Below are positions 3,001 to 55,537 of a DNA stretch of 64,000 nt, in pieces (within the stretch, counting starts at the first letter, position 1; every line of letters starts with the position of its first letter). The DNA is from Candidatus Omnitrophota bacterium (GTDB lineage: Bacteria > Omnitrophota > Omnitrophia > Omnitrophales > Aquincolibacteriaceae). The stretch is from NCBI GenBank assembly GCA_023247055.1, contig JAHFHF010000005.1, positions 18,985 to 82,984 of the forward strand, given 5' to 3'. The notes beneath the pieces were generated by a model. It had not been told where the DNA came from, did no database searches, and saw only the letters and a list, made by a program, of their open reading frames with translations. Both the position numbers and the translations under genes were made by a program.

Positions 3001-6000
3001 CCGGTTTTAACGGAGATGCATTTTCATAGCATGCTTCGCAGTCTTCGTGCAGATTCAAGCATCGCGGGGGATAGATGGCTTGCCGCCGCAAAACCCAATT
3101 ACCGGAACCGGCACCGTTTTGCCTTACAGCTTCTAGAGCCGCCTAAAAACCGCTTTCCGACAAGCGCGCAGATGGCGGATTTGCTCCTTGCCCTCCGCCG
3201 CAGTGACAATGCCGGCGGGGTCGATTTTTTTGAGCGTCACCAAGCTGCTGTCAAACAAATTCACCCGCAGATTTTACAAAGATTAGGCCGCATGCAGCAG
3301 CCCCCCCAAGAAATTTTTGATGCGGCTGCGCTTGAGACGCTGGCTCAATTTTCTAATCCGGCCGCAGCTCAACTTTTACTGGAAGAAATAAATTATTTAG
3401 CCTACGCATTAAAGCAAGGGAAGATCGATGCTTCAACTGCCGCTGCCATGAGAAATAAAATAACAGCATTGATTCAGAACCCGGCTGTTTTGAATGCCGA
3501 CGAGAAAAAAATAGATCTGATCAAGCAATGGCTGCAACAAGCCCGTGAGCACGCGCAAGTGCACGCTATGGGACTGCACTTTATTTTCAATCTTGAATTC
3601 GATGCGGATGTTATGAAGGAACTGCTTAAAGGGTGGCGAGGCGAAAAATTCTACCTCGATTTGTTTGACGAGACGGTTTTGACGATGCTGCAGAATGCGA
3701 AAACAGAATTTGGAAGCGGTTTAACCGATTCGATTTTAGCGGCTGCGAGTGGTGAGCGCGACGTTACTTACCTTAAAACGGCGGATTATTACCGAAATAT
3801 CCGGCAGAAAATTCTGTTTTTGTTCGCAGCAGACGGGTTTAAACAATTTCCTGCCAGGGCCACCAACGATGCTGCCTTGAAATTAATACGTATCGATCCG
3901 GAGACCTTGAAAGCTTCGCTGCAGAATTTAAAGGCGTGGCTTGGAAACGAAGTGATCGATGCTCAATTGGCGCAGGGACAATTTCAGGTTTTAAATCAGT
4001 GGGTTGCTTTTGAAAGTCAAATGACCCAAGCGGGGCATGGAACTGATCTAAAAGATCATTTGACCCGCGCTCCGCCAGAACTCGATCGTTCGGAATATTT
4101 TACGGTTCTTAGCGGCTTGCATCTGGAACTTGTAGGGATGTTGATCAATCTCGACAAAGACAAGGCGCCGGAGGATAAAAAAATCGAGAGAAATTGGCAA
4201 GAGAATCTTGCGGCTTTGAAGACCCTCGATGAACTCTACCGTGGATTACTTGCTTTAAAACAAGGCCAGACAGCCGTGGATCATGCAATTGCTCATCAAT
4301 TCGTGCAGCGTCTGTTGAAAACCGGAGAAAGGGGGCTGGTGAAGGAAGCCCAGTTATTTGTCCGGGGGTTGAAAGCGGGCGTTGTTCCCGTGGCGCTTGT
4401 CAGCGCTTTCCTTGCCCGGGCTGCGGCTACGGGAAATAATGAATTTACCAAGCGAGTCCATATTTTGAAAGTTTTGGGTGAACTGCTTCAAATCCACTCA
4501 AGTATTACGAAAGTAAAAGCCTTGGAAGGCGTATCTGCGAAAATTGTTCAAATTGTTAATTTGTTTTTAAAAGCAGAAAAAGCTGAAATCGGGCAAGTCC
4601 GCCGTTTGCATCAAAAATTGCTTGCGCGGCTTTTAAGCGCGGTGACTGGAGAGAATAAAATCTCTGAACCGGCTGCATCCGCGCTTTCAAAAGACCTTTC
4701 TTTGCTGCCTAAAATCCTGACAATTATTACCCTTTACTATTCGCTTGAAAAGCATGGGCAGGGGCGCATCCAAGACCTGAAGGATCACCTGCAGACCCAG
4801 CTCAGGGAATTTATCTTGACGGGAGACCGGGCGCGCATCCGCAAAGCCATTCTCAAAACGGAAGCCAATCAGATTATTATGAAAAAATTAACCGAAAGCG
4901 GCTACGATTTACGTCTTTTAGAAGAAGGTTTTGAAATCGAGGCTGTGGCCGCATCCTGGGACGAAAAAGAAAAAGAAGACGAAGTGAAGGCGACAATCCG
5001 GCAGTTGTCGCACGATATTATCGAAATTGCGGCCCGGCTGGGTTTCCAACAGCAGGTCGAAGGGGCTGCTGCTGTCAGCCAGTTTGATCATGCGTCCGAT
5101 GCGCAGGACTTTGTAACGGCTATGGCACAGCAGTTTCCCAACAATCCGGCGCTGGTTCAGGCCGATATCGTTGTGGCGCAGATGCGCGAGGTCGAAGAAC
5201 GGGCTCAAAAAGAGATCCGCGCCAAACGCAGTGAAAAAATCCGCGTCGTGGTGCGCAAAGATTTTCTGGATGAGGCTTCTGCCGGCGGGTATGACTATCT
5301 TGGCAGTACCGTGCCCGGCTGTTTTAGCCCGAATGGGGCGCATCAGGAAAGGCCGCCCCAGACTTCGGCCGATGCCGGCGGTACTTTCGCCATTGCTTAT
5401 GACGAAGCCGGAAGAATGATTGCCAATGTCGACCTAGCCTTTACGGATAAAGGCGTAGTGGTCTATACCGCTTACAGCAGCCGCGCCGATCTTAATTTGG
5501 ATCCGGTTTGGTTTAAAGTTTGGCAAGTTTTATCGAAACTGGCTCCGGCCGTTATCCTGGATCCCGCGCATCGATCTGCAGGCGTCAAGGAAGCTTCCAA
5601 ACAAAACCAGCCTGAAAAAAATGTAACGGCTGAAAAATTAGGATCCCAGGGATCAATGTATTTCGATTTCGGCCGGTCCGACGCCGCCGGAAAACTCTCT
5701 TACGCTTTTTCGGAAGCTATCGTTCTCAGAAGCGCGCAATTTCCTGAGGTTCAATCGCCCTTTTTGGATTCCAAGGAAGCTTTACCCGCGTCAACAGCAT
5801 CCGCCGCACAAACAGGCAAAAAAGAGGATGCTCGTGAGACAGTTCAACCCGTAGAGAAGTTAGATCCTAAAAAGTTAAACGACGAAGAACAAAGAAAAGT
5901 TAAAAAAGAACTCTTCGATTTGGGTTTAAAGGACATTGATTTTGCCCCGATTTTAAGAAACTTGAATGAGATTATTTTAACCCCGGGATTTGACCTTGCC

Positions 6001-9000
6001 AGATTGCTTTCGGAACTCAAGACACGGCCTGCAAGCCGGGGTGCACAGCCCGGCATTCCCACGCAAAATGATTTAGAGGCTTTGAAGCGAAAAATTCTTG
6101 AATTGCAAGCCGAACACCGCATCCCTAGAGGATTTGAGGAATTTGCCGAGATCGTCCAACGCGAAGCGCCGAGACTCAGGAGTTTACGCGGCAATGCAAG
6201 GCAAGAGGAATTATTGAGAATTCTTCAAAATACTCTTTCTGAAACAAGAGGCGTTGATTTGTCGCGCCGTCCCAGCCGGGAAGTGGGAGCCATTCCATCG
6301 AGATTTATAGAAAATGCCCAATTGCAAATCGAGTCCCAGGCGGCGGAAGCGCTCACGAGCAGGCTGGATGAAGCCCGAGGTTTATTGGGAGCAGCTTCAC
6401 CCCAAGAAGAAGAACAAGATTTGATCGAGATTCTTTTTGGCGAGTATATCCCTCAAGCGTCTGAGGTCGTTCTATCGGGGGAATTAATCATGGAGAACGG
6501 ACAAGCCCGGCTTGAAATAAAACAGCCGGGTGAAACCTTGGCAATTCTTGATCAGAACCGGGTACCCCAGGGGCAGCGGACTCTGCAGTTTGAGATTTAT
6601 GTGCGACAGGGAAATCTCCATATGGAAATCGTGGACCTCGTTGCTTCAGACTCATCCGAAGCCTTGCGATTTTATGCCAACTTTGCGCAATGGGCCCAAT
6701 TTGTTTCCAACCACTTGCAGGTGCCGCTGGTCATTGAGCATGAAACCGCTATTTTTTCAGGGCGGGCTTCCCGTTTCGGATTTCACCAAATCAAACAAGC
6801 GCAGAGCCTCATTAAAGATAATTGGATTAAAAAAATTCAGCCCTTATTGGCGGAACTCGGAATCCCCGGAGAAAATTTTGCAACCCACGGCGTCAATCTT
6901 GATAACTTTCGATACTACGAAGGAATCATTACGCCCCGGCCGCTTACAGGCCGCTCCGAAGTGCGGACGGCGCCAGAGCATGCCGCTCGAGCTCTGCTTC
7001 ATCAAACGAAAATCGAAACGCGTCAAAGGCATGAATCAAGCCGGCGGGCTTTTTTGACCGCTTTAGGCGCGGCAGCCGCCGGAGTTTTTATAGCCGGCGA
7101 TCATTTTTCCCCCAAAGAAAAGATGAATCCGTGGCGTATTGCTGTGGAGCCTGAAATTTCCATAGATCCGAATGTGCTCGTGGAGAATCAGCAAGCTGCG
7201 GCCGTTCAAAAAATACAGCAGTGGCGAAATGACCTTCAGCGGGAATTAAAAGAGGTGAACACAGATCCTGAAACGAAAGAAATTGCCGGTGAATTGGCCA
7301 GGATTCTTGGGCAAACGGCTGTCGTTTATCGAGACCAGGATTATCCGGAGTCTGAGCCGACGCGCATCATTGTCGATCACCGGGCCATGCAGGGCAGAGC
7401 GCAATTTTATATCAGCGTGATTCATGAGGCCTTGCATCATTACTACAATAGAAACCAAATGCTGTTGCCTGAGACGGAAATGGTGAGTGGATTTCAAACC
7501 GCGCACGATCTTGAATTTTATCTTTGGCCCGGGGAAGAGGGCTGGGTGATCAAACAAACTAATGTTTTATCCGCCGCGCTTGGGATATTCCCGGAGTTTT
7601 TAAAAGCGTCCAATGCGGATGAAATTCTTTATTTTAACGGAGACTGGCTGACTTTGCCTGCGATTGCCGAGCGCATTCAAGGCGGCCATGAAGTCGCTGA
7701 ACGTGCGGCATTGCTTGTCAAATTTCTGCCTTTAATAGCACAGGGCCAGGAACTTTTCTTTTTGAACCAAGCATCGCAGAAAAACCGGCAGGCAGCCGAG
7801 CAGCTTCTTGTGGACATCTTGCCAAAAAATAGTGCGTTAGATCCAATCATACGGGCGGCATTAGAACCCGCCTTGAAATTAAACGCATGGCTGAAACAAA
7901 ACGGAGCTTTGTCCTACCCCCGCCGTTCGGAAATGCGGGGAGCGGCGCCAGAAGATGAATCTATAGCAGAGACAGCGGCGGCTTCTGTTTTTCAGGATTT
8001 CATTAGCGGCAGATCCGGCGGAAAAATAAGCGGCCGCGACCGCCAGCGGGATTTACGGCTATTGAGACTTGTCGGGACAAGAGTGCTCGCAGCGATGCCC
8101 AGCAGTGTGGATTCGAAAGATAAAAGCGTTTTACTTAATAATTTTTTGTCGCGCATTGCCATGGATATGGTGTCTCCGGAAGCGATACGCCGTTATCTCG
8201 GCGAGTTAAGTTATGTGCTGGCTCAGGCAGAGACGCGTCTGGGGTCTGGAGATGCCGGAAAGAAAGTCATCAATGAAATCATGAAGGCCCAGGGAAGGCT
8301 TCTCCCGTTTATTCAAAATGAAAATTCCGACGGCCAGCGATTTTATACACCCGAACCGTATCGAGGCATTGAAAATTTTCGCCGGTTTTTTGATTTTGTT
8401 TTCGAGGGATGGGATAAAACCGGCACTGGGCGTAAAGGTTATGCGGCCAACGGCAGTGTCCTGATTCACTTCGCCTTGGAAACAGCCCGCGAAAAGGGTT
8501 TTTCGACACGGCAGCTTGAGACCAGAGGATGGCGTCAGCTGCTTCCATTTCTGAGGCTTAACCAAATTAATTTTGGCGGGCAAGTTTATCGTCTTGGCAA
8601 AGCCGAAATTTTAAACGGAGCGGTTACCACGGAATTTGCGGAAGGAAGAAATTTTATTTTTAGGGCCGACCTTGAAGACGCCGCAGGCGTAGCCCAAAAA
8701 CAAATTTTAGTCAAATTGGGCGTAAAGAATCCAGAATTTGATGAGGTCGTCACTGAAATGGCGCGTACGATGGGGCTAAAAACCTATGCCGTTGAGCGAT
8801 TTGATGCGGGGGAGGAAGCCGATAAAGACGGATTCCATCCGATCGCGCTTCAATTGATCGAGTTTGTGCCGTCGCAAATTGTTTTTGCTCAAGGGCAGGA
8901 TGGGGATGGAAGAAAAATTTCGTATCCAAATTTATCACCGCTTAAAACCTTGGAGGCTGGCGCCAAGACACAAGCGCTTGAAGAACTCGGAGAGCATCTG

Positions 9001-12000
9001 GCGCTGGATTATCTTTTTGGCGGACGTGATTCAATGATGAAACATTTTCTCCTTACGCGGGAGGGCCGGTTCATTAAAATTGACAACGAATTTTTGTTCG
9101 AATACAGTGCCACTCCGCAATACCCGAGATTGGCGGGAACCTTGGAAGCGCAAAGTGATTTTTGGGATTTTTTGGCCGCGCTGAAAGAAGGGCCGCCGAT
9201 GGAAGGCTGGGATAGCGAGGCTGCAATCAGACACGGTTTTGACCGGGTTCTGACAAAGATTGCTTTTAACGACGGCGGCGCCAAAGAACGGCTTTTTAAA
9301 ATTATAGAGACACGCAGAACGTCAGCGCAGCAGGATAGTCTTAGTCTGGATGCCATTAAACGAGGCATTGAGCAGCGTGCGGGCCACAGTTACGAATTTT
9401 TGAAGTCTATTGCAAAATCTGCCCGCTCCGAAATGCGGAGCATACCGCGCATACCCATACCGGACGCCGTCCGCGGGGAGACGTCAGACTCATCAACCTC
9501 TCCCCGCGGACGGCGTCCCGTTACGCGTCGGACTTTTCTGGGGCTTGGGATGTGGGGTGGGGTTTTACTTACCAGCTTTTCAGTGGCTAAATACTTCGGT
9601 TCGGAAACAGAACGGCAGAAAAAAATTCGTGAGTCCCGCCAACGGCGTGAAAAACAGGAAAAAATTCCTTCCAAAACTCCGTGGGACAAATTCCCGTTGG
9701 ACGATGTGAAACGTTCAGACACGGAGAAAATCCGTCAGTCGCTACAGGTTACCCTCGATTGGCTTATCCAGACGGGCTACGGCGAGGCGGATATTCTTGA
9801 CGAATACGCCGGTTACCTAGCCCAAGCCAGGCCGGGTGAGGGCCTGTATCATTCGCTTATGTCAAAAAGCTTTCACCTCAAAAAAGGCATTGAAATTGAA
9901 TTTAATGAGCGGCACCTCCTGGAACTGATCCGGCAGGTTAAAAATTCCGAATCCCTGGATCTTTTTGTCGTGACGCTGGCTGCAATGATAATGCGGGAAT
10001 CCCTCGGATTGCAAATTATGATGCATGCTCAAAAACCACTGGAAGAAATCGCGAAGGGAACCGAAAAACTGGAACTGGCGCGAAGAAAAAGAATGCCGGC
10101 AGATGAAATGAATATGTACAGTCAGCCTTTGCGCGAATTTCTTAGCCAAAATGAAAATGAAATCGACCGGCTGCTGGCTCTTTCCTTCGCTTTTGAATAT
10201 CTAGAAGCGGAAGCGGAATGGAATTTTTACGCAGCGGCCTCAGCCCGGAATGATTTTTCCGTGCAGGGCGCCAACGAAGCGCTGAACACAGTTAACGCCC
10301 GGGCTTTGGCGCTGGCAGATCGATTGAGAGTAAGTGCTGATTCGGCATCCCTGTTGATGGAAACACAGGGAGACGATTTCCTTATTTTTCGAAGCCAGCT
10401 GGCTGGAATGACGGTTGAAAAGTATCAACTTCTTAAACAAGGGGAGCTGGCGCGTAAGCGAAAAGAGTTACCCGAAGCGAATTTTTTATTAGTGAATTAC
10501 GGAACTTTTATGGAAGTAAACCGGTTTCAGCCTGCCGAAGAACCAGGCAAACAGGTAGGCCTTAGCCCAGCCATCATAGGAAGTATGGAGCGCAGGGAGT
10601 GGCCAGATTTTGACGGGTTCACGCCCTATGCTAAACGATTGTGGCCTCAGTTCCATACAGCCGTAGCTCAATTGCGCAAGGACCTTCCGTTCGCGCATGC
10701 GCTTTTCGAAGCGCAAAAAAAGGACTTGCTCCGCAGAATGAAGCGCTTGGGTAGCGACTTGAAGCCGCTGCTAGATCGTAAGTCGCGGCCTGAAGCCCCT
10801 CTTTTCGACGGCGGGGCCAAGGCCGGCAATGCTGCCTCCGTCCGTTCTGAGATGCAATTTGTTACGCCAGACTCATCAACCTCTCCCCCCGGACGGCGTC
10901 CCGTTACAACAGATGAAATCTTGAAAACCATTATTTCCAAAGCCCGCTCTGAGATCCGGAAAACGCTGATTTTTGCGGCGGTTGTTTCAGGGGGCGCCTT
11001 GCTCGCGGCTGTGGGCTATCTGAAATGGCCGAGCATTCAACGCTGGTTTGAAAGCCGCAAGAGTCCGGAAGAACCGTCAAGCGGCCGGCGCGATTTCCTG
11101 AAGCAGGCTTTAGCGGCCGCCAGTGCTGCGGCATTAAAACCATCACGAGGGCTGTTAGGAGTTTTGAGCCCGGCGTTAAAGCCGGAGTTTACCATCAAGA
11201 CTGCCATGGGGCAGGTCGCACAAGAGGAAGCGGTGTCATGGATAAAAATAGTGACAGGCATCGAGACAACGCCTTCCGTTTTACCGCCTATCTTGTCACC
11301 TAATAAATCGGTTGTTGAATTTGTGAAAGCCATTGAAGTAGAGCCTATTTCATCCTGGGAAAACCTTGTACCGCCGGGTTATGAGCATTTGCTCGGCCCA
11401 TCGCTTGGAGGTATGTCCGATCTGCGTACGGTTATGATCAACGAATTCATCGGCCGTTTGGCCGAAAAAAAATTGTCTAATGGCCGTTCCCCGCTGGAAA
11501 ACTTTGGGATTTACGAGCCCCTTGGAAGTGGGCGGCGCACTTACACCGTTGCAGGAGAAACTTATACTGACTATGGGCTAACTTTCGAATTGCGTGATAT
11601 TGCAGATTTAATTAAGCAGCATTTGCCCGACGGATTTGAAGATGCGGCATGGACCGATGCGGCGCTGGATCGCGCTGTCAGTCATTTTGCACAGGCGCTG
11701 ACAACCAATCCCGCATTGCAAAATCAAGTTCGAAAATTTCGCCAGGTTAAAACTCAAGAGCGAAGCCGAAAACTTCAGCAGCGCCGTGATGGTGAAGAAA
11801 ATCTGGTGATGCTCAAAAAACAACTTGCCGTCGCAGAGCGCTCACGCCGCGATTTTGCGAATGGCGTTGGTTTCGACGGTATGCGTGATTTCCGTACCGA
11901 CATAGATGAACTGGATGACCGAATCAAAAAGTTGACAGATCAAATCCGGTGGGAAGAGACCTATGTTCTGACGCTCAAAACCGCTCTTTCTGCCCGCTCC

Positions 12001-15000
12001 GAGATGCGGGGAACGGCGGCTCAACAGCCGACTTTGGCTTCTATCTTTTTGATTCTTGGGAGGGTGAGCCGGATGGCGTCTTCGAGCGTGGTGACTTTGT
12101 TTTCAATGGCGCCAAGTCTGTCTTTGACCTCTGTCATATCGAGACAAAGTGAAGCCACTTTTTCACTGATCAAAGATTGGTTCGATTCAAATCTTTCGAT
12201 CAGAACGCCTACTTCCGTTGCAGAGAAATTTTTATCTTTCATGAAGCGTACTTTACTGGATTTGAGGAGGGGAGTCAATATAAATTTTATAAATAATTTA
12301 TTTAATAAAAAACCAAATTCTCTATCTGCGACAGGACGTTGGAATATGCCAGAGCGAGGATTTGCCCGCTCTGAAATGCGGACGCCCCGCCCATCGCCGG
12401 AATGGGAACGGCTCGAGACTTTGCTGAGGAAACAGCCCACGATTGATATTGCTTATACGAACGACTTCAAGCAATTACCGGCAAGTCAACGCGCCGAACT
12501 TTTCAGAAAAGTACTTTACAATGAATATAACCTCTCCACGCAAGGTTCCCATGCCGCGATATTGAATATGCCGATTCCTTCAGCCTGGGTTGTTCAGGTA
12601 CGCAGTTTGATCTATGGTATGCAAGATGCCGAATCTGTATCGGTTTTTCTCAGAGCGCTGCAAGATCCTTCTCTTGATCTCTCGGGTTTTTTTGACGCGG
12701 CCGGACTTCAGTTAAGCGATTTGCTTCGTGAAAAGCCCGAAATCATTTTGCAGTCTTTGAGCGAGCAGGCCCTTAGCCTTTCGGGGCTTGTGGATTTAGT
12801 GATTCAACAGCAGGCGAGTGGGCTTGTCGTTTGGCTTAGGGATCTGTTGATGCATCCTGAAGTCCCGCGAGCGCAAAAGTTTGCGGCAATGAGACGGATC
12901 TATGAAAAAAGCATCGTGCTGCTCAATGAATCACGACCATTAACGCCTGGGCTTGAGACCTTGCTGCCCGGGGCAATGATTTCTTGGGAGCTTTCGCAGT
13001 CAGACTCTGAACCGTCTGTGACAACACAGGATTTAAAGGAGCGCGGGCGCAAGATACGGCTTGAAAGACTCATGGCGCTGAACGACATTTTTCAATTTGT
13101 GGCCTCTTTTATTCGGCAGAATGTTGCAGTGCGGTATAGCGATGTTGAGAATGCGCTGCGGACGCATCCCGAGATCTCTTTGAAGTTTATAAATTTACCA
13201 CTTGCCGTCCGCGCGAAGATCCTTTCAAAAGTGGCGCTTTTTTTCCACAACAAGTATCTGGCGAAGGAACTATTTGAAGATGCGCGCCGCCGTTATTCCC
13301 TTGAGGATTATGAGAGAATGGCTAAGAATATCGAGGCTCTTTCGAGGGACTTAAAACAGGCTTATCGCGACGGAGCGGCGGGGGATGTGAAGTTGCTGCG
13401 CAGCCAGATTCGATATGTTCGCAAATCTTTGAAATGGCTTCACGAAAAAAGAGTAGCGGCCTTTTATCAAGAATTGACGGGGCGGAAAGAAATACCGGAA
13501 ATTATTTATCTTGAACTCGGAGACGCTTCCTTGATTGTCCGCACGGATTTTAAATCGCTGCAGAAGTTAGTCGACTCCCCGCAGATTGCAAAGCCCGTAG
13601 AGCAGTCAGTTTTTTCTCAGTTTTTATCTCAATTCAGCGAAGACCGTCCGGTGCCCGATAAAAATAAGCTGCGTGAGTTGCTTGCAGAGTTTCCGCGGTA
13701 TATCGTTGAAAATTTCCAGAATGAAATGATCGCTTATTTAGCAGGGGGTACAGAACTGCGTTACCGTAATTTTGATGATCTGATTCTGTTTTATCGTGAT
13801 AATTATGCTGATTGGCTCAAAAAATATTTAGAGCGAACCCTGTATCAAGATGCAGCCACGCGAACTCAGAAACAGGAGTTGGCGGCGTTGATCTCTGAAA
13901 TTTGGCAAGGACCTGAATGGAATACTGTTTATCAACAATTGAAGAATGCCAAGGCATTATTGGATCAGCTGGTCGATGCTAAAGCAACCTTGCTTTTTCA
14001 TCAGAGTGAAAACGGGGCTGCATTCGAGAAGACAACGGCTAGGCGTAAGGCTTATCTTGAAGCGGGCACTTCTATCATGGGAATCTTGCAATTTGTTCCG
14101 CTGAGCCGCTTAGCGCCGCTGCAAGACTTGCTGGAAGAATATGAAAAACAAATCCAAACTCAAAATATTTCTCCGAAGCAGCGCCTGCGTGACCGGGAGC
14201 AGCCGTCCATGGTGAAAGCAGGAAAGGAGCGGTCGTTTCAAACCAGCGGATTTTATTCGGACGGGATTATTTATACGCCCCTTGAGTCTGAATCGCTCGT
14301 TATAGACCATGAGACGCAGCATCTGATTCATGGCCTTTATACTTCCGACCACGTGCGAGGCATTTTGCCTTCACAAGGTGAATTTAATGAGCAGCTTTAT
14401 GAGGCCTTGAAGCATACCAAGGCAGCCCGCTCCGAAATGCGGACGGCCAGCCGTGATCAAGATATCAAAGGCGAAGACCTAACCGTAAAAGGGACTTCCG
14501 CCGAAAATTTTGTGATGGATGGAGAAAATTCATCAATTGAAAGATTGCGAAATTTGCTTTGGTCGGAAAATGATCCGCGAAGACGGCTGGGTCAATACCC
14601 GGTCATCATTCAGGATTACGATGCAAACCGGCCAGGTTCCGGAAAAGTGATTTTACGATCTGACGATGACGATGTTGCCACGATGCCTTTTGTTCCCGAT
14701 GACCCCTTTTGGGATGAAATCAATGCGCAACTAAACGGTGGTATTTCACCAGACCATTTGCGGCGCATGGAAGATAAGGCAGGTAAACCCATAGACAAGT
14801 TTTTAAGATCCGTTAAATTTTTTGTCCTTCCTGTGTTCATTTTAATTTTTATAGACGGTGTTTTGGGCGGGCCTGTGATTGGCCGTGCTCCATGGATCAT
14901 GGCCAATTTTGAAAGGGCAATGGTTATGTTAATCCTATCAACTGCCGTTACAAGTCTCGGCGCGACTGGGATTTTTTATGCTAAAAAGTGGTTTTTGGGC

Positions 15001-18000
15001 CGTCGCACAAATCGAAAAAAGAGCGCCGAAAAAATTATAGTAAGGAAAATTGTTTCTAGTAGTAATGATGTTTCCGAAGGCGTCGGGTCTGCAAAACCGG
15101 CAGCCCGCTCCGAAATGCGCCTACCAGCGCGAGCCGAAGTGCGGACAGGCAGTATGGCGGAAAGAATCGCTAAAGAAAGGCTTCACCGCCAAGATGTTCT
15201 GGAGCAATTCCGGGAAATGCGTCGCGATCTTTCAACGCGTACAACCATTCGAAAGCAGGTCGGACCAGATATCTGGGAGGATCGGAAGATGACCGAGGCC
15301 GATCGGGAGAAAGAAGCGCGGCGTCTTGACAGGCAAGTCCAATATGCCCAGCAGCGTTTTCTTTTGGATTCGGATGCCCTGATCGCAAAGCAGCTTGCTG
15401 TGAAGGATTCATTCGCGGCTTTGAAAGGGCATCAATCAGGCGCGTTTGGGGATAAAGCCCGTTTCCGCCATGATTTTGAGTTCGCTGTTTCTAATCGTCT
15501 TGGCTCCCTGTTTAATGAGACGCCTCCGAGCGATGCCGACCTGCTTTTTGTCCAAGAAGCCCTGAAGCAAATCCCGGAAGAAATCTCACGCCGCCCGCGA
15601 TGGATTGCGGATGATCAGGGGAATGTTTATTCCTACATTTCGGGAGGCGGGGAGCGATCCTACTATGCAAATGAGCAGACCGGCGAGGGGGTTTATGTTT
15701 ATGGGTACCAACCGCATTATCCCAATGTTGCTCTGAAACACCTGCAACTCTATATCGCCATCATCAACCGGCTGCGCGCTGCTCCTGAATTCCAGAACTC
15801 GAAATTTGCCATTCCCGAGTATGAAGTCGTGGTCCTGCATCAGCCCGGATTCGAACAAAATTTTTATGGGCTTAAAACAAGGCATATTCCGGGGACGCTC
15901 GCAGGCGCAGATACGACCAGATATAGAGCCAAGGTGGATGCTTTTGTGACGCTGGCCAAACGATTGCTGCATGACATGCTCTATGCGGGCTATTTAGTGG
16001 ACGACGGCGAAAATGCTTTGGGCAAGCCTGATACGCATTTTAATAATTTCATCGAGTCTGGGGGCACTTTTTACGGCGTCGATCTGATCACGATGAGCGA
16101 TATCATCAAAGGCGCGGACAGTCTTGCTCGAGACCTCGGCATCCAAAGCCTGCCGGAAAAGGAAGATTTGCCTGCTTACTTGCAATCCCCAACTGCCGAA
16201 AAAATTAAGGAATTGTTTTTTCAGGCCGTGAAGGACTACCAGAACATCCCTCGCTCCGATGCCGGAACGGAAACCGGGCTTTCTATTTCAGACCGGTTGC
16301 TCATTGCGAGGGAAAAGCTGGCGGTTTTTACGCAGGAGCTCGTCAAAAAATGGCTTGAAGGCGCCTATGATGAGCCGGGAGTCAAGCCGGTCGAACTGGG
16401 CAGTCTTGACAAGCCAGAGGTTGTGCAATTAAAAAGGCTTATTGACGGAAATCGTATGGGAGACGCTACGAGTTACGTTGCAGACAAGGAACACCCGCTT
16501 TTTCCCTATCTTCTCTACCTTGTTCAAAGCGATAGCCTGCCTGTTCCGGCAGGCTTTGCCGGCGAAGCGCCCAGCATGAAAGCGACGCTTTTGGAACAGC
16601 TTCAAAACGGCGCCTTGACCAAAGGAAATTTGAATCTTGGAGACTATTTCCGGGATTATCGCGACTGGGACCAATATGGTTTTATCCGCAAAGAAACCGT
16701 GGTGGCCATTGAGCTGAGAAATGAATTTCTAAAGGGCCTTGTACGGGAAAGGCTATTTTCAGGGTTAGTGCCGGCGGCTTTGGATTCCTTGGACAAGTTG
16801 AGCGCGCAATCCGGTGTTGAGATTCCCTCTGAAATCCGCGAAGAATTTACAACGGCATTGTGGAAATATGTGGACCTGGAAATGCAGCAGCAATGGTGGA
16901 GTGTCAGTTCAGAGCGCTTCGGTCCGCTGGACAGTGTGATCATTGAGAAAATCCGGGCCAGCAGCCGTTCCGAGATACGGATCGGCGCAGCCCTTCAACG
17001 GGCGCTGGCAAAAAAGCGCAGCCCTGAAAAAAGAGCTGAATATCTTAGAGATCTGGCTAACGGGCTTGACGATTTTTCAAAATTTTTGCTCATGGACGTG
17101 ACCTATGGGGAAATTCAAAGAACGAGCCATCCCCCCGGCATTGCCAGAATAAAAGAGAATGTGGAGTCTTACGCGCGGGCCCGCGTGGAAATGTTGCTGC
17201 GTTTTGATGAGGAAACGCGCCGGCGTATTGTCGGGGCCAGCGCGACCGAAGACAATGGGCCTAATAATGAGTACGCGCTGAGATCGTTTTTTAAAGCGGT
17301 CGAGGTCTTCGAAAAGTTACTGGGCGCGGACTATGATCCGGCCGGCTTGCGGGAATATCTTGTGAAAATTTTGACCTACTATTTTACGGGCGCGGAATTC
17401 GAGAAGCGATGGAGCAACGATGCGCAGGATTTGCAGGCCATTGTGGAGGGCGAAGCCTTTGACGCAGGCTTTAATGAGATCACTTATGAAAAGATTTCTA
17501 CGGGCACTTTTTCTTATACCCACAAGCCAACCGATGAATGGCTTGGATACGACAGCCGGGTAGTTTTAAAATATACGGACGAAGTCTCGCAAAGAAACGA
17601 ATTTTACAGGTTGACCGGGTTTTATCCGGAAAACGTCCACGACAAACAAGACCTTTTTGCCCCGCCCTATTTTTATTATTCGCAGTTGATCAAAGCCCAT
17701 GTGAATCCCCGGGATCAGGATTTGACAGTTGTTTACGGGGACCTGCGCTACAACAGTAATATCGCGATCCTTCTGATGCAAACCAATGCCGCAAAAGCTT
17801 ATTTGCCTGCCCGCAATAAAGGAACACTTGAGGAAGCACAGGCGGCTCTGGAAAGCTGGGATTTTGAAGAAATTCGCACAAGGGCGGAAGGGCTTGCCCG
17901 GCCTGTGAATGCGCCATTGAGCCTGGGAGGATTCACACAACAGGTCGCCTATGGGAAAAATTTTGCTAAAGCGGTAGTCAATGAACTCAAAGGTCTTGGC

Positions 18001-21000
18001 CTAAAAAAAGAAGATGTGCATGTTTCTCGAGACGAAAAGGGACGCCTCGTTTTTAAATTTCCGTGGGGTTATCCAGGGACGCAGGAGAAAAAAATTCGCA
18101 CGATTATTTTTTCAGATACCGATTTAATCGATGAGGGGGAAAGAAAAAGTTTCATTCAAACGCTCGCCGGCGAAACCATCCATCTTTATTATGAACACCC
18201 GGGCCAAATTAATTTGAGTGGGGAAAGCCTTGAAGCCAAAAATGAATACCCCGCGCTTCTAGCGGACATGGCCAATCTGTTGCCGCCAGACGGGCGGATC
18301 GTGACCGGCCAGTATGATTCCTGGGGCGGGCGGATTGAAGACCGAGGCGGAAATGACGAGAGTGCCGGACGAAACGTTTTGGCCCAGAGTTTTGTTCCGG
18401 AAGATCTTTCGCGGAGTGCACAATGGTGGAGCCGTGGGATTCCGGAAGCACATCGCTTGGGTTTTGGAGGAAACACCCGGATTTTTAAAAGAAGCGGAGG
18501 AGCAGTGGTCTCTCCAGAAACAGCCAGGCCTTCTCTCGAGCAAATACTGCCGCATCGTGAGCAGCCCCTTCGTTTTGCAGGTGATACGAGGATCGACTTC
18601 AAGGCTGTCCCCGACACGAATTATTTTCTCGCCTACGTAAAACAGCTTACCGAGGGAGCAAAGTATTTAAAAGCTTTTGTGGATGCGGTCAATTACCCCG
18701 GAGAAGTTTTGAATGCCGATGCGAACGGAAGAATTGCCAATGATCCGGATCAATTAATTCAAGAAGCTTTTGACCATATCGTCCGTATACGTCAGGGTGA
18801 GGAACAGGCGAATCGCGGCAGAAAAGAATTGGGTTTTGACTCGAAGAATGATTTTAATGATCTGAGCAGGCCGGAGAACCTAGTGGCCATGATGTCCTAC
18901 CTGGCGTTTGGCGAAGTCCTGCCCTGGGACAATGCGGATGACACCTTGAAAGGGCGCTTGCAAAAAGCGCAAAGTCTTGCGCGGTTGTTTGATGAGGCTT
19001 TGCCCCCAACGGAAGATGTGGAAAATGCGGCTCTTCAAACCATCGCCTATAAGGATTCCAAAAGGGCCCGTGGAATTCTTTTGGAAACAGTGGCGGTTTT
19101 TGCGTTAATTGAGGAAATGATCTTAGACTTTGAAAGCAAAGGGGAAGGGACGGATAAAAGTCTGACTTTCGATCAATTTATTCAGGCAGTCCAGAACGAA
19201 CTCAAAGAGATAAAAGAAACTTGGGGCAATAAGCCGAGAGCTCTTGCCAGAACAGAGGATAAAAAGGGAAGAAAGCGGCTGCGCAGAACACAACAGGAGG
19301 AAAGTCTTGTTCATATTCTCATTGAAGACGACCTCAAGGGAATCAAGCAGCTTGCAGAACGCGCCTTGAACATGGCTTTCGGCTACCGGCCTCAAGACCA
19401 AGGCACGGTGGTGACGCTGCCCCGCTCCGAAGTGCGGAGCATTGTGAACGAAGGGCTTCCCGAGACTTATCCTGGGCGAGATATATTCAGCGCTAAAAAT
19501 ATTCTTGAGGGAACGCCGCTGTGGGAGAAATTGAAAGAGTTTAATCATGGAAAATATCCGGCAGTGATTAATGTTTCCGCACAAAGTACTAAAGCCGCGA
19601 AGGAGTCTTTTGACCGGCAAGTTCAGCATCTCGATAAGAAAGAGATCGTTTATGTCTACTTTCAGATCGAAAATAAAGGCCGCATTACTCATCTTGTCAA
19701 TGTGGATGAAGTTCAGGCGATTGATTCGGAAAACCCCGCGCCGCTTGGACGGCACCCTTTTGTTCTGGCATGGATTGAAGATTCTATAGCTCAAAATTTG
19801 CATTTTACCAGAGTCTCTTTGGGCAAGAACGACTCCGGTCAAGCGAATGATCCGCTGCGCGGGCAGGGCCTCATGAAGCCCGTTTTTGGGCGAATGGAGT
19901 CACTCATAAAATCTCGTTTTCAGGGCTGGACAATCTCTTCCCTGGCGCTGGATGAAAGCGGAAGTGTTCAAAAATTCCTTTCCCATTTTTCAGGAGTGCG
20001 GCACATCACCACGGCACAGGAGGTTCTTCTTGACGATCGCGGTTATGAAAAAATAAGTGAGGGTGATCCGCAGCGATGGGGAAAATTTGTTATGGGCCGT
20101 ATCGCGGCTGGAAGAGATCGCTTGGATCAACCCGCGGCGTATGGTGAAGATAACAAACAGTTAGAAAATTTTTTAAATGAAAGAATTTCAGAAATTCAAG
20201 CTCGCCTTGCTCATTTAAGAGAGGATGTTCAGCACAGGCTTGCCGTGTTGCAAGCGAATTGGGATCAGGAAAGAAGCGATGCTCCACGAAAGGCCAGCCG
20301 TGTTATTTCCGCTATGATAGATCTGATGCGTGGGGATCCTGCCCGTGTGCTTATGTTGGAAGATATTGAGAGGGATCACCAAAGAAAAGGGCTTGATTAT
20401 GGGCAAGAGCAGACGCGTCATCTGGAGAAGGCTCTTCTAGGCCGTATTGAATATAAACAAAAAATCATCAAGAACTCAATTGTATCGCCAGTCATAGTTC
20501 TGGAAAGACAGCTTCACTTTTTTGAAGCAGCACTTCGGTCGCTGCAAGGCGGTGAGGACGCCGCAGGAGCAAGCTTTAAAGCAGAACAAAATGCCGAAAG
20601 ACTCTTTGACAAACTTGCTGAGACTGGCTATGTCGGGGCATGGAATTTTGAACTGCGGGCCAAGGATAAAACGGGCCGTGAGGTTGAAAGATGGAGTGAG
20701 GCGGAAACCCTCGTATTGGAGGTGCGGCTTAAAACGGATGTCGTGGGGCAAATTGCTCTTGATAGGACGCAGCTTCAATTAGCGGGAGACATCTATAAGG
20801 TTTTAGGTGAGAAATTAGCAAGCTTAAAACCGGCTGATTTAACAGGGGCTCAAGAAAGTTTCCGCGCATTTTTTTTAAAAGATCTTGCTCAGTTAAGCCA
20901 GTCGGAGTCTGCTGATATCACAAGAAATACTCGAGATCGTGAGGAGATAGCTTTTGATATGGCCAGTCGTGTTTTGGTTGGCTTTTCTAAAAAAATAGTT

Positions 21001-24571: not shown

Positions 24572-27500
24572 ATGGATTCCCCGAAAGCCGCGGGGCTAGA
24601 CCCCGGCCAAAAGACAGCGTTTAGTGATAAAAACAAGTTGATTCAGTACATCAACTTGAAACTCGCCGCTTTGAACCAGCCCATTTGCGGCAAATCCGAT
24701 GACCTCATTGAAATTGCGCGGCCGCTTCTGCGCAATCACCAGGAAAAAAACCGCCTTCTTTACCAGCATCTTTGCCCGGTTGACCGCCGCATTCAGAATT
24801 TTTTGGATGATTATTTAAAAGACGTGCCGAACCGCGAAAAGGCCCGGCTTCCCGCCCAAACGTTTACGCTGGATTTTTACGGCCTGGCGCGCATGATTTC
24901 ACTGCCAGTGACGGCGGATGTGTTTACTTCTGACATTGTAAATTCCTACCGCTTGAAGCAGGGTGTTTTACACAACCCCAAGAACGACCGCCGTACGACG
25001 CACGGAGTTTTTCATATTACGGAAGGCGGCCTGCCCATTCCTGACGACAAAAAAGCTGTGCCGCCCGGTGTGTTTGCCGCCATGCTGAGCCATGCCTTGA
25101 GACCGTCACGCGAACTTCTGCGCCTGCCTTTTACCAGCGACCAGAAAAAACAGGCCGAACTTTTTGTCTCACTGCTTCTGCGTCCGATGGTCGTGCCGGA
25201 AGTCCGGGGCTTTACGCCGCGTAAGAGTATGGAAATCCGTTTTTTTGCGCCGGGCAATCTGGTGGGCAACCTAGATTTTGTGGAATCCATTTTTGGCAAT
25301 GCCGGTGACCCGTATCTGCCGGAGAATGATGCTGCACTCGATGTCGAACATTGGACGGGCCATACGGGCTGTGTCATTCTTGCGCCGCATCTGCTGACGC
25401 TGACTAAAAAAGAACTGGGTTTACCTCACCACGGTGAGGCTACGGAACGGCAGCGTCGCGACGGCATGTGCTGGCAGTCTCCGGACGAGCGTTATAACGA
25501 AGGTGAGGCCTTTAAGCTGACGTGCCGCGATGAGCGCGGAGTCATTGTGACGATAATTGCCGACAATTATTTCGGCTACTGCAAAAAAGAAGTCAAAACC
25601 CAGATCAGTTATGCGGCCAATCTTTATGGAATGGCCGAAGAAGAACACTCCGGTGGAGCCATTGCTTTCCCGAGTTACGTGCTCGGAGAAAGTTTTCACT
25701 TTGAGGGCAAGCTGCCGCAAAACGGGCTTAATTTCGACGATATGGTCGTGCAGTATGCCGACTTTATGGATTTAAAACCCGAGGGTTATGCCATTGATAA
25801 AAATTATCCTGATATTATTTACGTGCCCGCCGATGCGCGGCTCAGCGTCAAGCATGAGAAGGTGACTTGGGAGGCGCGCGGCCGCGAACATGCGATTAAA
25901 CTCCTGCCGTGGCAGACGTACGTTTATCCTTCCGGCTATAAAGTGCAAATGCAGAAACACACGGGCAGCGGCATCTGGCGCCTGACGGGCACGGTCTCCG
26001 AAGGCACCCTTTGTCATAAACCCTGTACAGTTTCCGGCGGCGGCAAATCCGAAATCTCCAAATCGATTGAGTATGCCATTATTCACGGGCCTGTTTTTGT
26101 CGCGGATTTTTACAAAGACATGGACGTTGTGGACCAGATTTTAGCGCACGATTTTAGCGGCCGCTTTGTGCAGAAATTTTCGGACAAGCGCCCCAGCCGT
26201 TCCATTTTGAGCGAAGAGCGTTCGCTCGGATCTGTGATCAAGCTGCTGACGCAGTCACCGGAATACACCGACACTTACAATGCCTGGCTCAATTCACTAG
26301 CGCCGCACATCCGTGAGTTTGTTTTTATTCTCAAACGCTATTACAAACCCGAATGGGGCGGCGACTGGCGCAGCCATTTTACGGTCGACATCATCAACGG
26401 CTACATGGGCCACGAATTAAAATACGATGACCGTAAGCTGGTGGCCAATTACCTGCGCGTCGGTGAAGAAAAAGACGGGGTCTGGCGCACCTTTAAATTG
26501 CGGCAGGATTTTAACGCGGCGGTTAAAATCCAGGCTGAAGATGATATTACGGCCTCGGTCGTGGTGCCGGCGCAGCACTTAAAATATTTAAACGCGGAAT
26601 ACGCGCAGCCGTTTGTCAAGATGGTGGCCAATTGCGAATACCGGCTTTTTCAGCGGCCTGATGATGCCATTCACCGCGGTTTTGATAAACAGGCGGAAAA
26701 AGACATTTGTTCCAATGACGTTTTCCTTTCAAACTGGCAGCCGCTGACGCTCGAAGAGGCGCGCGATTTGGTGGAAGATGCCACGGGCATTGACCAGTAT
26801 TCGAAGCCCATGGGGGATTTTATCCGCGGCATCGAAACAGAAAACAAACCCGTGTACTTTGTTTCCTCTGCGCATCCGCGCATCGTAGACGGCAAGCCGT
26901 CCAAGAACCCGCGCTATTTGCAGGACCGGCCTGATCTTATTAATCCGAGGCAGACTTATTTGGCCGATATCGGCGCACGGCTTTTCCGCAAAGTGCCTGC
27001 GGCGGAACCAGTTTATTTTCCTGTCAACGCCGTACTCTCAGGCCGCCGCAACAATCCGCCGGATCCGGCCCATCACCTGAGGCCGCTGGCGGTCTATAAC
27101 CCCATTCACTATCAGGAACTGCCCGAGTTGTTTATTGATTTTATTGCAAGCGTGACCGGCAAATCACCTTCGACCACCGGGGCGGGTTCAGAGGGCGCGT
27201 TGACCAAGGGGCCGTTCAATGCGCTTTTACCGGTGATTGATTTGAATAACGCCCTGGTCTCTTTTATTTTGACGGGGCATCAGGGGTTTAGTTCCGCGGC
27301 AGGCTATGTCGGCCCGAATATCCGGGTTGACCATGACATCAGCCTTTTGATTCCGGAAATCTGGTGCCGCATGAGTTTGGCCGAACGCGATCCTCAATTT
27401 CTGATCAAAAATGGTTATCTCGAGAAACTGGCTGATTTTGACCACAAAGGCAGCCGCGTCCTGGCCAGCCGTTTGGGTTACCGCATTACGATGCGGTTTG

Positions 27501-28075
27501 TATATGCTTTCTTCGGCCGCATGTTTAATTATCCCAACGCGGTTTTCAGCGAAGCGATGCTTAAACCCGAATTGCAAAGCATGGATATTTTTGCCGACGG
27601 CGTTGACAACATTGTTTCTGCGGGTAAAACCGCCGCGCAGTCTTACTTCGCCGACGGCAGCGTGGAATTGGCCATTCCGCCGCTTAAGGCCCTTTTGCAC
27701 ATCATGGTTCATGGTCATTACGAAGGCAAAGATGTTCAGCATGCCGGCATCCGGGCCCTCTTCACTCGCGAGACCCTGCTCAAATCGGCGTGGTATGAAG
27801 AGCGTTTAAGTGCCAAACAAAACGCGGACGTCCGGCTTTGGCAGCGCCAGGTCAAATACCTTGAAGATTTTCTGGTCAAGCCGAGCCACATTGAATCCAT
27901 TGCCGATCTCAGCCTCCGCCAGCGGCTGGCGTTTGCGCGCAAAGAACTTGCGCGCGTACAGGCCAAAGATTACGTGAAATGGCTGCAGGGAACCTTGGGT
28001 CTTGATCCCGGGGTTTTCAAAAAAGAAAATACAGTGGCGGGTTTAGAACCCGCCTCTACCCGAGGAATTGTTTGA
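24572..28075 (+). CDS. Large (about 1,167 aa) soluble enzyme; tentatively the PPi-dependent phosphoenolpyruvate carboxykinase (EC 4.1.1.38) family, otherwise a conserved hypothetical protein.
   Basis: Single long ORF (24452..28075 in the track; first Met at 24572, MDSPKAAGLDP...). The size class and general character match the ~1,100-1,200 aa PPi-PEPCK family. No motif-level confirmation is possible from memory. Confidence 0.3.
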   Translation: MDSPKAAGLDPGQKTAFSDKNKLIQYINLKLAALNQPICGKSDDLIEIARPLLRNHQEKNRLLYQHLCPVDRRIQNFLDDYLKDVPNREKARLPAQTFTLDFYGLARMISLPVTADVFTSDIVNSYRLKQGVLHNPKNDRRTTHGVFHITEGGLPIPDDKKAVPPGVFAAMLSHALRPSRELLRLPFTSDQKKQAELFVSLLLRPMVVPEVRGFTPRKSMEIRFFAPGNLVGNLDFVESIFGNAGDPYLPENDAALDVEHWTGHTGCVILAPHLLTLTKKELGLPHHGEATERQRRDGMCWQSPDERYNEGEAFKLTCRDERGVIVTIIADNYFGYCKKEVKTQISYAANLYGMAEEEHSGGAIAFPSYVLGESFHFEGKLPQNGLNFDDMVVQYADFMDLKPEGYAIDKNYPDIIYVPADARLSVKHEKVTWEARGREHAIKLLPWQTYVYPSGYKVQMQKHTGSGIWRLTGTVSEGTLCHKPCTVSGGGKSEISKSIEYAIIHGPVFVADFYKDMDVVDQILAHDFSGRFVQKFSDKRPSRSILSEERSLGSVIKLLTQSPEYTDTYNAWLNSLAPHIREFVFILKRYYKPEWGGDWRSHFTVDIINGYMGHELKYDDRKLVANYLRVGEEKDGVWRTFKLRQDFNAAVKIQAEDDITASVVVPAQHLKYLNAEYAQPFVKMVANCEYRLFQRPDDAIHRGFDKQAEKDICSNDVFLSNWQPLTLEEARDLVEDATGIDQYSKPMGDFIRGIETENKPVYFVSSAHPRIVDGKPSKNPRYLQDRPDLINPRQTYLADIGARLFRKVPAAEPVYFPVNAVLSGRRNNPPDPAHHLRPLAVYNPIHYQELPELFIDFIASVTGKSPSTTGAGSEGALTKGPFNALLPVIDLNNALVSFILTGHQGFSSAAGYVGPNIRVDHDISLLIPEIWCRMSLAERDPQFLIKNGYLEKLADFDHKGSRVLASRLGYRITMRFVYAFFGRMFNYPNAVFSEAMLKPELQSMDIFADGVDNIVSAGKTAAQSYFADGSVELAIPPLKALLHIMVHGHYEGKDVQHAGIRALFTRETLLKSAWYEERLSAKQNADVRLWQRQVKYLEDFLVKPSHIESIADLSLRQRLAFARKELARVQAKDYVKWLQGTLGLDPGVFKKENTVAGLEPASTRGIV

Positions 28076-55084: not shown

Positions 55085-55537
55085 AAGATCTCATTTCTGA
55101 TTACGCAAGTTGAAAAATATTTTTTCGCCGTATAAAGATTCCTCAGCTTAAAATTATATCTTATAGGTATCTTTTATTCTAAAAAATACATCTAATGATA
55201 AAAAAAGCATCTGAAGACCGCTTTTGGACTTATGACAAATATGTGTTTGGCGCGCTTCGAAAAAACCATACTTTTTTGTCTTGCAAGGATGACAGACGTA
55301 AATACTCTATGCCGTAACTGCTTTTATCATAAGGAGTTATATCCATATACTATATACAAAAAATTTTGGCATGGATGATGCTATATTCCCGCCTTCTGCG
55401 AAATCAAAAGGCAAATATGACTGAGCAGCAGCCTCTGGAATGAAAAACAAGGCATTTTTTTTGTCTAATAATTAAGGAGTTTAAAAATTAATTATTAAAT
55501 TATTTTTAGTAAATTTTTTATTTTGAAGAGGGAGACA

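Follow-up and report, generated by a model that had tools for sequence, protein, structure and literature searches.

A recurrent five-residue mark at the module boundaries of giant open reading frames, most likely from Omnitrophota, as a candidate cleavage map

Giant open reading frames (ORFs) are a hallmark of Omnitrophota; they are well known, poorly conserved and poorly understood (PMC10066038). Here we analyse two of them, ORF1 and ORF2, in a stretch of 64,000 nucleotides of contig JAHFHF010000005.1 (hereafter the window), together with a five-residue motif, RSE[MVI]R, that recurs along both. In earlier work on such giants, West-Roberts et al. speculated about proteolysis; the cleavage points were unknown, and hence the proteins were not divided into units (10.1101/2023.11.21.568195). 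Internal signal-peptide calls were discarded as artefacts in a 2026 preprint (10.64898/2026.06.07.730766). All three studies left cleavage of the products open, and they mention neither a recurrent boundary motif nor a TIKI-fold head nor real internal signal peptides (PMC10066038; 10.1101/2023.11.21.568195; 10.64898/2026.06.07.730766). Literature searches on the motif strings returned unrelated acronyms only, the motif was not found described, and a search for Omnitrophota together with polyprotein found nothing relevant.

The proteins studied here resemble the published 'Archaeovorin' type in being giant and poorly conserved, with few Pfam hits, scattered hydrophobic helices and, in ORF2, an N-terminal signal. 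Embedded domains are a further likeness, namely a phosphoglucomutase, HEAT repeats (HEAT_2) and ABC1 in the relatives L163, P0009 and L209, respectively (relatives are cited by working handles of this kind). In contrast to that type, the visible parts of ORF1 and ORF2, both incomplete, yielded no SecA_DEAD, C39 or S8 domain, and HEAT_2 was found only in the relative P0009. With at least 9,030 amino acids (aa), ORF1 also falls below the class of >30,000 aa that is central to the papers on Omnitrophota giants.

MARTX toxins of Vibrio are processed by a cysteine protease domain, which cuts at Leu residues and not at a five-residue motif. Like the giants described here, they are single giant polypeptides composed of several unrelated units, in their case secreted and carrying effector enzymes, in sets that are reshuffled between strains (PMC6254334). 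A cis-encoded protease frees the MARTX effectors by cutting the linkers between them, much as is proposed here for the giants. Both systems include a member of the TIKI superfamily, the endopeptidase RRSP in MARTX and a predicted TIKI-fold head module in our giants; RRSP, however, is an effector that cuts host Ras and not a processing enzyme. Neither RTX repeats nor a cysteine protease domain was detected in ORF1 with Pfam.

Viral polyproteins such as nidovirus pp1ab and those of picornaviruses likewise run to thousands of residues, carry a short conserved junction motif that varies by lineage, and include membrane products among their enzymes. They give rise to about a dozen mature products, and the cleavage motif co-varies with the protease of the lineage. 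Two features of polyproteins are found in the giants, namely several independent units per ORF and a conserved short motif at the junctions. Unlike the viral examples, ORF1 and ORF2 are genes of a cellular genome, among ordinary neighbours on the chromosome (liv, hem, pfk), and no 3C-like or papain-like protease was detected in either.

Marks, modules and relatives

The two giant frames occupy the following positions of the window.

1-23757, + strand: giant ORF1, frame 1, more than 7,918 aa, N-terminus lost at the window start
55538-64000, + strand: giant ORF2, running past the window end, with an N-terminal signal or anchor followed by the head module

The motif RSE[MVI]R occurs 13 times in ORF1 and twice in ORF2. 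For ORF1, 0.026 copies were expected and the maximum in 20,000 residue shuffles was two; a chance origin of the motif, and of the twin-arginine (Tat)-like pattern described below, was rejected by these shuffles. The copies, with a degenerate and a doubled one, are as follows.

565-579, + strand: RSEVR, aa 189
6952-6966, + strand: RSEVR, aa 2318, start of module 2
7924-7938, + strand: RSEMR, aa 2642, start of module 3
9424-9438, + strand: RSEMR, aa 3142, start of module 4
10843-10857, + strand: degenerate motif RSEMQ, aa 3615
10945-10959, + strand: RSEIR, aa 3649, start of module 5
11995-12009, + strand: RSEMR, aa 3999
12367-12381, + strand: RSEMR, aa 4123
14428-14442, + strand: RSEMR, aa 4810
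15106-15144, + strand: doubled motif RSEMR-LPA-RAEVR, aa 5036 and 5044
16966-16980, + strand: RSEIR, aa 5656
19423-19437, + strand: RSEVR, aa 6475
21412-21426, + strand: RSEVR, aa 7138
22807-22821, + strand: RSEVR, aa 7603, start of the last module
57506-57520, + strand: RSEVR, first motif of ORF2, aa 657, in a probably disordered stretch of low predicted local distance difference test score (pLDDT) past the folded head
61940-61954, + strand: RSEMR, second motif of ORF2, encoded by CGT TCC GAA ATG AGA, with GRRFILTLPASSGA 11 aa further on

This motif is punctuation at module boundaries. The median distance from one motif to the next is 354 aa, the size of an ordinary protein, and doubled marks, 8-35 aa apart, are located in linkers. 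A logo of 118 distinct sites reads [A/S/G/P]-R-[S/A]-E-[V/L/M/I]-R-[T/A/S/G]; the flanking sequence is rich in small and acidic residues, Glu being enriched.

No module of ORF1 or ORF2 resembles another. An all-against-all comparison with other giants revealed that homologous modules begin and end at the motif while their order and number differ; such motif-bounded homologues were found in P0001, P0002, P0004-P0007, P0009 and P0013. Module 3 (aa 2642-3142) matches P0001 2907-3407, P0006 2298-2731 and P0003 650-1473, and module 4 (aa 3142-3649) matches P0002 5091-5564 and P0009 1932-2397. The most widely shared unit is module 3 (window 7924-9423), to which 10 of the 15 relatives found with HMMER align and of which a stand-alone homologue of 564 aa exists in an ordinary gene neighbourhood (P0008). 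The start of the last module (22807) is kept as RSEMR in both L209 and L107, even though the module itself is only 29-32% identical. By eye only, a stretch of module 3, GGRDSMMKHFLL...GRFIKIDNEF, resembles a kinase catalytic loop; kinase-like domains occur elsewhere in related giants (APH in P0011, ABC1 in L209).

Whole proteins can be recognized between the marks. In L163 (L163:782-10723, - strand), aa 1351-1462 hold two tandem domains of CsrA, an RNA-binding global regulator, with CsrA's own Met start (MLILSRK...) placed directly after RAEVR; in the same giant a NagB/Pgl-like enzyme fills one module of 290 aa, and the phosphoglucomutase lies inside another. L207 has the head as a gene of its own, the end of which overlaps the start codon of a gene for 7,909 aa. 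A gene boundary thus stands at the head-body junction, where the fused members have their first mark, which indicates that the mark behaves like a gene boundary. Together, these observations strongly support a fused-module architecture: complete proteins (median ~350 aa), none related to the next, follow one another in frame along each giant ORF, with the mark at each junction.

The relatives came from an exhaustive HMMER search with ORF1 aa 2318-3517 as the query, which returned 15 proteins, mostly giants of 1.5-7.4 kaa with the motif. A word-indexed homology search with ORF1 aa 2318-3998 gave no match, nor did this segment turn up relatives among the GTDB species genomes. Pfam gave two sub-threshold matches for ORF1, none significant, and no hit for ORF2, and no Rfam family was found within the 64-kb window. 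In addition, a metagenome scan for the 18-mer GCCCGCTCCGAARTGCGG yielded 120 hits, mostly single chance matches, among them six loci (L136, L183, L149, L163, L091 and L107) with open frames of 1,500-3,600 aa and 3-11 copies of R[SA]E[VMIL]R. One hit, L187:2468-2725, was placed outside the family; it lies on a contig of 65% GC, where a 79-nucleotide tandem repeat in three copies contains the 18-mer by accident.

The spelling of the mark varies among the relatives. RSELR occurs 13 times in P0001, together with one RAELR, and the mark is present in 7 copies in P0002 and in 10 in P0009. At equivalent boundaries, P0003 carries RSESR (four copies) and P0011 (L205:8226-19082) carries S-GFGA (12 copies), one GFGA directly preceding a homologue of the twin-arginine anchor of module 4. 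Short, lineage-specific marks at equivalent boundaries would be expected of a site that co-evolves with its reader. The giants P0012, P0014 and L207 have no obvious mark, though they contain a head module or are preceded by one. ORF1 and ORF2 are members of this giant 'punctuated' protein family and most likely come from an Omnitrophota bacterium.

ORF1 itself has no internal stop from the window start to nucleotide (nt) 23757, at least 7,918 codons. On ENA contig ERZ27280021:k141_5769294 the gene has a partial product of 9,030 aa, and the protein is 100% identical in two independent ENA assemblies across the regions compared. Given that it is identical in independent assemblies, ORF1 is not an assembly chimera. 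An otherwise identical assembly (L003:1-420, ENA ERZ27276474:k141_3176948, ~17084-17500 of the window) has two in-frame stops, one a TGA in place of TGG and the other a TAG in place of a Tyr codon, at most 100 nt apart and near the contig end. Errors of assembly so close to a contig end are the probable cause, but a real nonsense variant in the population could also account for them.

At the DNA level, the ORF1 sites share a uniform 16-mer, CCGCTCCGAARTGCGG, and the preceding base is C in all 13, against a background of 21% (p ~2e-9). Of the 13 sites, 11 have CGC for the first Arg and 11 have CGG for the last, and all five Val codons are GTG. This uniformity exceeds the demands of the amino-acid motif and is not shared by ORF2, where AGA closes the second copy, or by L163, L209 and other relatives. 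Across L163, L206, L209 and L136, the pentapeptide is encoded with AGG, AGA or CGN for Arg, AGC or TCN for Ser, and GTT, GTC or GTG for Val; these varied codons indicate that the primary constraint acts on the protein. The uniformity in ORF1 may stem from a choice of codons for accuracy where residues are critical, or from recombination at the site in the recent past. The idea of a hairpin at the sites is weak, and no claim here relies on it: CCGC-N8-GCGG or UCCG-AARUG-CGGA folds with no more than -3 to -10 kcal/mol, several copies break it, and the second copy in ORF2 lacks it.

The giant genes also bear traces of rearrangement, one of which is a direct repeat around module 4.

9481-9524, + strand: 44-nt direct repeat, left copy, encoding SDSSTSPRGRRPVT, immediately before the RR of module 4
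10864-10907, + strand: right copy, 42/44 (95%) identical, 1,383 nt or 461 codons away and in frame

Recombination between the two copies, which flank module 4, would delete the module in frame; alternatively, a recent insertion may have left the repeat as its scar. A second trace is seen in L209 (JGI Ga0502764_0000018), which we compared with window 1-34000. There the phosphoenolpyruvate carboxykinase (PEPCK) is 81% identical and the flanking genes have the same order (mscS, livFGMHK), whereas the giant gene, of 5,402 aa, has only its last module in common with ORF1, at 32% identity and with the preceding boundary motif kept. On this comparison, a hypervariable giant gene sits among conserved neighbours. 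The direct repeat, the shuffled module order and the divergence of L209 together suggest that giant genes are rebuilt quickly, module by module.

Signal-like segments and the head module

Several modules of ORF1 begin with segments that resemble export signals, and further hydrophobic helices lie elsewhere in the frame.

7039-7098, + strand: Tat-like segment 1, SRRAFLTALGAAAAGVFIAG, aa 2347-2366, with SRRAFLT, an uncharged stretch of 17 aa and a Kyte-Doolittle mean (19 residues) of 1.42
9523-9588, + strand: Tat-like segment 2, TRRTFLGLGMWGGVLLTSFSVA, with TRRTFLG, an uncharged stretch of 19, a Kyte-Doolittle value of 1.44 and a K/R-rich stretch after it
10954-11022, + strand: strongly hydrophobic segment, IRKTLIFAAVVSGGALLAAVGYL, (I)RKTLIFAAVVSGGALLAAVGYL, directly after RSEIR, Kyte-Doolittle mean 2.15
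11083-11142, + strand: Tat-like segment 3, GRRDFLKQALAAASAAALKP, with GRRDFLK, which matches RRxFLK, and 11 uncharged, Ala-rich residues between K/Q and K
14824-14976, + strand: two hydrophobic helices, aa 4942-4960 and 4974-4992, within a module and away from motifs

The sequence-only reading had described an RSE[MV]R motif followed by a Tat-like pattern at least three times and had suggested that the giant ORF is a concatenation of secreted or membrane modules with signal-peptide-like N-termini. All sequences that it quoted are present where it placed them, in frame 1 of the + strand. The threefold succession holds far beyond chance: the RR pairs at aa 2348, 3176 and 3696 start 25, 29 and 42 residues past the ends of the motifs at nt 6952, 9424 and 10945. 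RR.F[LI] occurs three times in ORF1 against 0.31 expected (p = 0.0034), and with at least 10 uncharged residues following, the three occurrences compare with 0.006 expected, and none of the 20,000 shuffles reached three. All three lie within 50 aa after a motif (p ~6e-4). ORF1 has five runs of 15 or more uncharged residues, and four of them start 6-36 aa after a motif. Concatenation, too, is borne out by the unrelated modules, by motif-bounded homologues in a different order and by whole proteins with a native N-terminus after the motif. That the signal-like segments are N-terminal parts of modules agrees with the RR-anchor conserved in three of four module-4 homologues and with the lipobox in a module-2 homologue.

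The three sites fit the twin-arginine consensus [ST]-R-R-x-F-L-K (SRRAFLT, TRRTFLG and GRRDFLK, the third with G first) and, like Tat signals and uncleaved anchors, continue into a moderately hydrophobic, Ala/Gly-rich stretch; of the ~12-20 uncharged residues usual for an h-region, segments 1 and 2 have 17 and 19, but segment 3 has only 11. Candidate signal-peptidase sites of the A-x-A type are IAG|D, SVA|K and AAL|K. As encoded, however, the RR pairs lie deep inside the ORF, 2,300-3,700 residues from its N-terminus, and not near an N-terminus as a Tat signal peptide requires, with its RR in roughly the first 35-55 residues; no cofactor-binding passenger domain was identified. Only if the product were cut after the motif would the RR sit at +26, +30 and +43. 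The segment at nt 10954 looks like a signal-anchor or a Sec-type signal. Segment 3 follows it by 21 aa, and its h-region of 11 residues is too short for a membrane span. The arrangement at nt 10954-11142, a helix followed by RR and an h-region, resembles that of the actinobacterial Rieske proteins with dual Sec/Tat targeting, in which an RR motif inside the protein causes a later helix to be inserted by Tat.

Homologous modules carry comparable segments. At the position of segment 2, P0002 has SRRIFFSAAG..., P0011 SRRTILIGAV... and P0013 SRRAIIKYGL..., each followed by a helix of 19-23 residues and a conserved ...DWL..GYP domain. Counting ORF1, [ST]RRx[FI][LFI] plus a helix is thus present in four of the five module-4 members, with P0009 as the only one without it; that [ST]-RR is kept at 24-42% identity argues for function. 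In place of segment 1, the module-2 homologues have a lipobox signal (IILAGC, P0012) and a hydrophobic helix (P0014), which suggests that the module 2 family carries an export signal of some kind, deep in giants. For the module of segment 3, no homologue was found. We take the three RR segments and the segment at nt 10954 to be the export or anchor signals with which modules 2, 4 and 5 natively begin and which they retained on fusion.

Module 2 also contains the HExxH motif that the sequence-only reading had put forward as a possible autoprotease.

7423-7548, + strand: HEALH (7423-7437) and PGEEGWV (7528-7548), forming an HExxH...E pattern that is invariant in three module 2 homologues

HExxH...E looks like a metallopeptidase signature. 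The AlphaFold2 (AF2) model of the module, built from three sequences, reached a pLDDT of 55, too poor for a fold search. Besides ORF1, the module was found in only two of the 23 related giants compared. Being rare and itself carrying an export signal, it is unlikely to be a general autoprotease; nothing supports that role for what is one shuffled module among many.

A better candidate autoprotease is the TIKI-fold head module with which ORF2 opens.

55775-57007, + strand: head module core, aa 80-490 of ORF2, with a predicted fold of the TIKI/TraB/erythromycin-esterase superfamily

After a signal or lipoprotein signal, a head of ~600 aa opens ORF2 and nine relatives with an intact N-terminus (P0001, P0002, P0003, P0006, P0007, P0011, P0012, P0014 and L183), and it is also present in the N-terminally incomplete P0009. 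Where there is a first boundary mark, it stands at aa 550-750, after the head. Stand-alone head genes exist, and one homologue (P0020) is annotated as Candidatus Omnitrophica. An AF2 model of the head, for which 14 sequences were used, has high confidence in residues 80-490, and its core is the parallel beta-sheet fold of the superfamily. Across 14 sequences H106, E134 and H460 are invariant and D104 is nearly so, and the model places these residues at strand ends. The set appears to mirror the 2His/2Glu site of RRSP, in which H3902 and E3930 are 28 residues apart, the same His-to-Glu spacing as in the head (PMC6254334). With the TIKI/TraB/PrgY/ChaN/erythromycin-esterase superfamily the head shares the acid-x-His, the Glu 28 residues later and the GG-x-His; it differs in a helical insertion of ~300 residues between the second and third catalytic elements and in having Asp, not Glu, as the first acid. 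A protease role for the head is plausible and the head is the best candidate at hand, but we hold this view only weakly. Beyond the head, ORF2 has hydrophobic helices at aa 769-894 and 2294-2469 (numbering from nt 55499), and the sequence GGGAG lies five bases before its ATG.

Proposed processing and its alternatives

We tentatively read the mark as an endoproteolytic processing site, cut after the second Arg, and give this slightly less than even weight. The giant product would then be a polyprotein precursor with the mark as the target of a dedicated site-specific endopeptidase, the cut probably falling directly behind the second Arg. The modules would thereby be released, and those that bear signals would gain a free N-terminus 25-45 residues before the RR, which is the geometry needed by a Tat or Sec signal. 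As a weaker suggestion, the endopeptidase could be the head module of TIKI/TraB/erythromycin-esterase fold. The full picture, in which an Omnitrophota bacterium would make true polyproteins with dozens of proteins per chain, regulators and enzymes of cytoplasmic type among them, cut at R-S-E-[VLM]-R by a TIKI-fold head protease and routed by retained Tat, Sec and lipoprotein signals, is possible and, in our judgement, doubtful. Conceivably, the routing would take place inside a prey cell through the prey's export machinery, the chain being delivered as an effector train.

Several observations weigh against cleavage. The cutting is deduced from sequence only, and while a frame kept open for 23.7 kb or more shows selection for read-through, it does not show any later cutting. 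The main difficulty is one of place: a head with an N-terminal signal or lipoprotein signal should sit outside the cytoplasm, whereas Tat targeting needs cytoplasmic cutting, and the two do not fit one compartment without extra assumptions. As to the head itself, ten heads gave no Pfam hit (E <= 1) and no PDB profile hit (E <= 10); the TIKI superfamily holds site-specific endopeptidases (TIKI, RRSP) but also esterases and non-enzymes, and heads also open giants without visible punctuation (P0012, P0014, L207). The helices of 19-23 residues in segment 2 and its homologues, with basic clusters after them, resemble uncleaved anchors more than signals that are cleaved off. In relatives, the motif is not followed by an excess of hydrophobic stretches (3/30, P = 0.67), which suggests that signal-first modules are a subset, as in any proteome. 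No tat gene was found among the window ORFs, which says little, given that the window is only 64 kb.

Much of this evidence would suit a single intact, polytopic giant, in which the modules are membrane-anchored beads on a string, the Tat-like segments are internal transmembrane (TM) anchors with Arg serving the positive-inside rule, and the mark is an uncut linker, hinge or docking motif. This possibility, of which we are doubtful to the same degree as of the full polyprotein picture, follows the literature reading of Omnitrophota giants as proteins with many TM helices whose internal signal-peptide calls are artefacts. It is favoured by the frame that stays open across every junction, by the TM-length helices and basic clusters of segment 2 and its homologues, by the helices of ORF1 that lie away from motifs, and by the lack of enrichment of hydrophobic runs after motifs in relatives. 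However, it leaves unexplained why an invariant five-residue mark, varied by lineage, stands at the junctions of unrelated modules, why CsrA's own initiator Met occurs at motif +1, and why L207 has a stop/start overlap in place of the head-body junction. Nor does it fit easily with segment 3, whose h-region is too short for a membrane while its RRxFLK is exact, or with the keeping of [ST]-RR, rather than of any positive charge, among four diverged module-4 members. The mark might instead be a nucleotide-level site, an in-frame microhomology or recombinase site for the swapping, insertion or deletion of modules, with the peptide motif as a by-product. The uniform 16-mer, which is the top direct-repeat family of ORF1, the 44-nt in-frame repeat around module 4, the module order shuffled between relatives, and the sharing of only the last module with L209 would all suit such a site, yet we consider it improbable: the varied codons of L163, L206, L209 and L136 point to selection on the protein, the mark always keeps one frame and one orientation, and the bias towards C-ending codons at functionally critical residues accounts more simply for part of the uniformity. 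Such a role is perhaps a secondary one and this reading not a true rival.

Separate translation of the modules, from an ATG or GTG within the motif as an internal start or from leaderless messages produced by mRNA processing, appears very improbable. Motif position 4 is ATG or GTG in 11 of the 13 ORF1 sites, a small hairpin can hold that codon in its loop, and a start there would yield MRKTLIFAAVV... and similar signal-like N-termini; moreover, the ordinary genes of the window mostly lack a Shine-Dalgarno sequence, so that its absence is no argument against initiation. Position 4 is, however, also ATC, ATA, CTC, CTT or TCN (Ile, Leu, Ser) in ORF1 and its relatives, GFGA stands at the same boundaries in P0011, and the R, S, E and R around it are kept at the amino-acid level. 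Ribosomes from upstream would meet no stop codon and read through regardless, and upstream fragments of a processed mRNA would be non-stop messages. The Met of CsrA, finally, is located after the motif and not within it.

Genomic setting and implications

The remaining features of the window concern the neighbours of the giant genes.

24572-28075, + strand: PPi-dependent PEP carboxykinase (PF26300), directly downstream of the giant gene, as in L209 and L211
47972-53203, + strand: tetrapyrrole cluster with hemA, hemC, a cobA-hemD fusion and hemB, with a cytochrome c assembly gene upstream

The lineage is resolved by the PPi-dependent PEPCK beside ORF1, which has 83% and 67% identity to proteins that carry the name Candidatus Omnitrophica. 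HemB has 54-58% identity to proteins of Brocadiae, Firmicutes, Omnitrophota and others and is thus uninformative on lineage. The NCBIfam search covered the flanking genes only. Ordinary genes without a recognizable Shine-Dalgarno sequence include those starting at 29766, 43274 and 52130.

For Omnitrophota giants in general, the mark offers an objective way to split the proteins into units for structure prediction and annotation, and a reason to keep rather than discard internal signal-peptide predictions. It also gives a concrete processing hypothesis, with a specific site and a specific candidate enzyme. Were cleavage refuted, the mark would still need an account as an invariant linker element, and the Tat-like segments would be unusual internal twin-arginine anchors. 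If cleavage is true, a bacterium would express polyproteins on a viral scale and would be a source of a new pair of sequence-specific protease and site, and the mark would be the long-missing cleavage map of the giant proteins of Omnitrophota.

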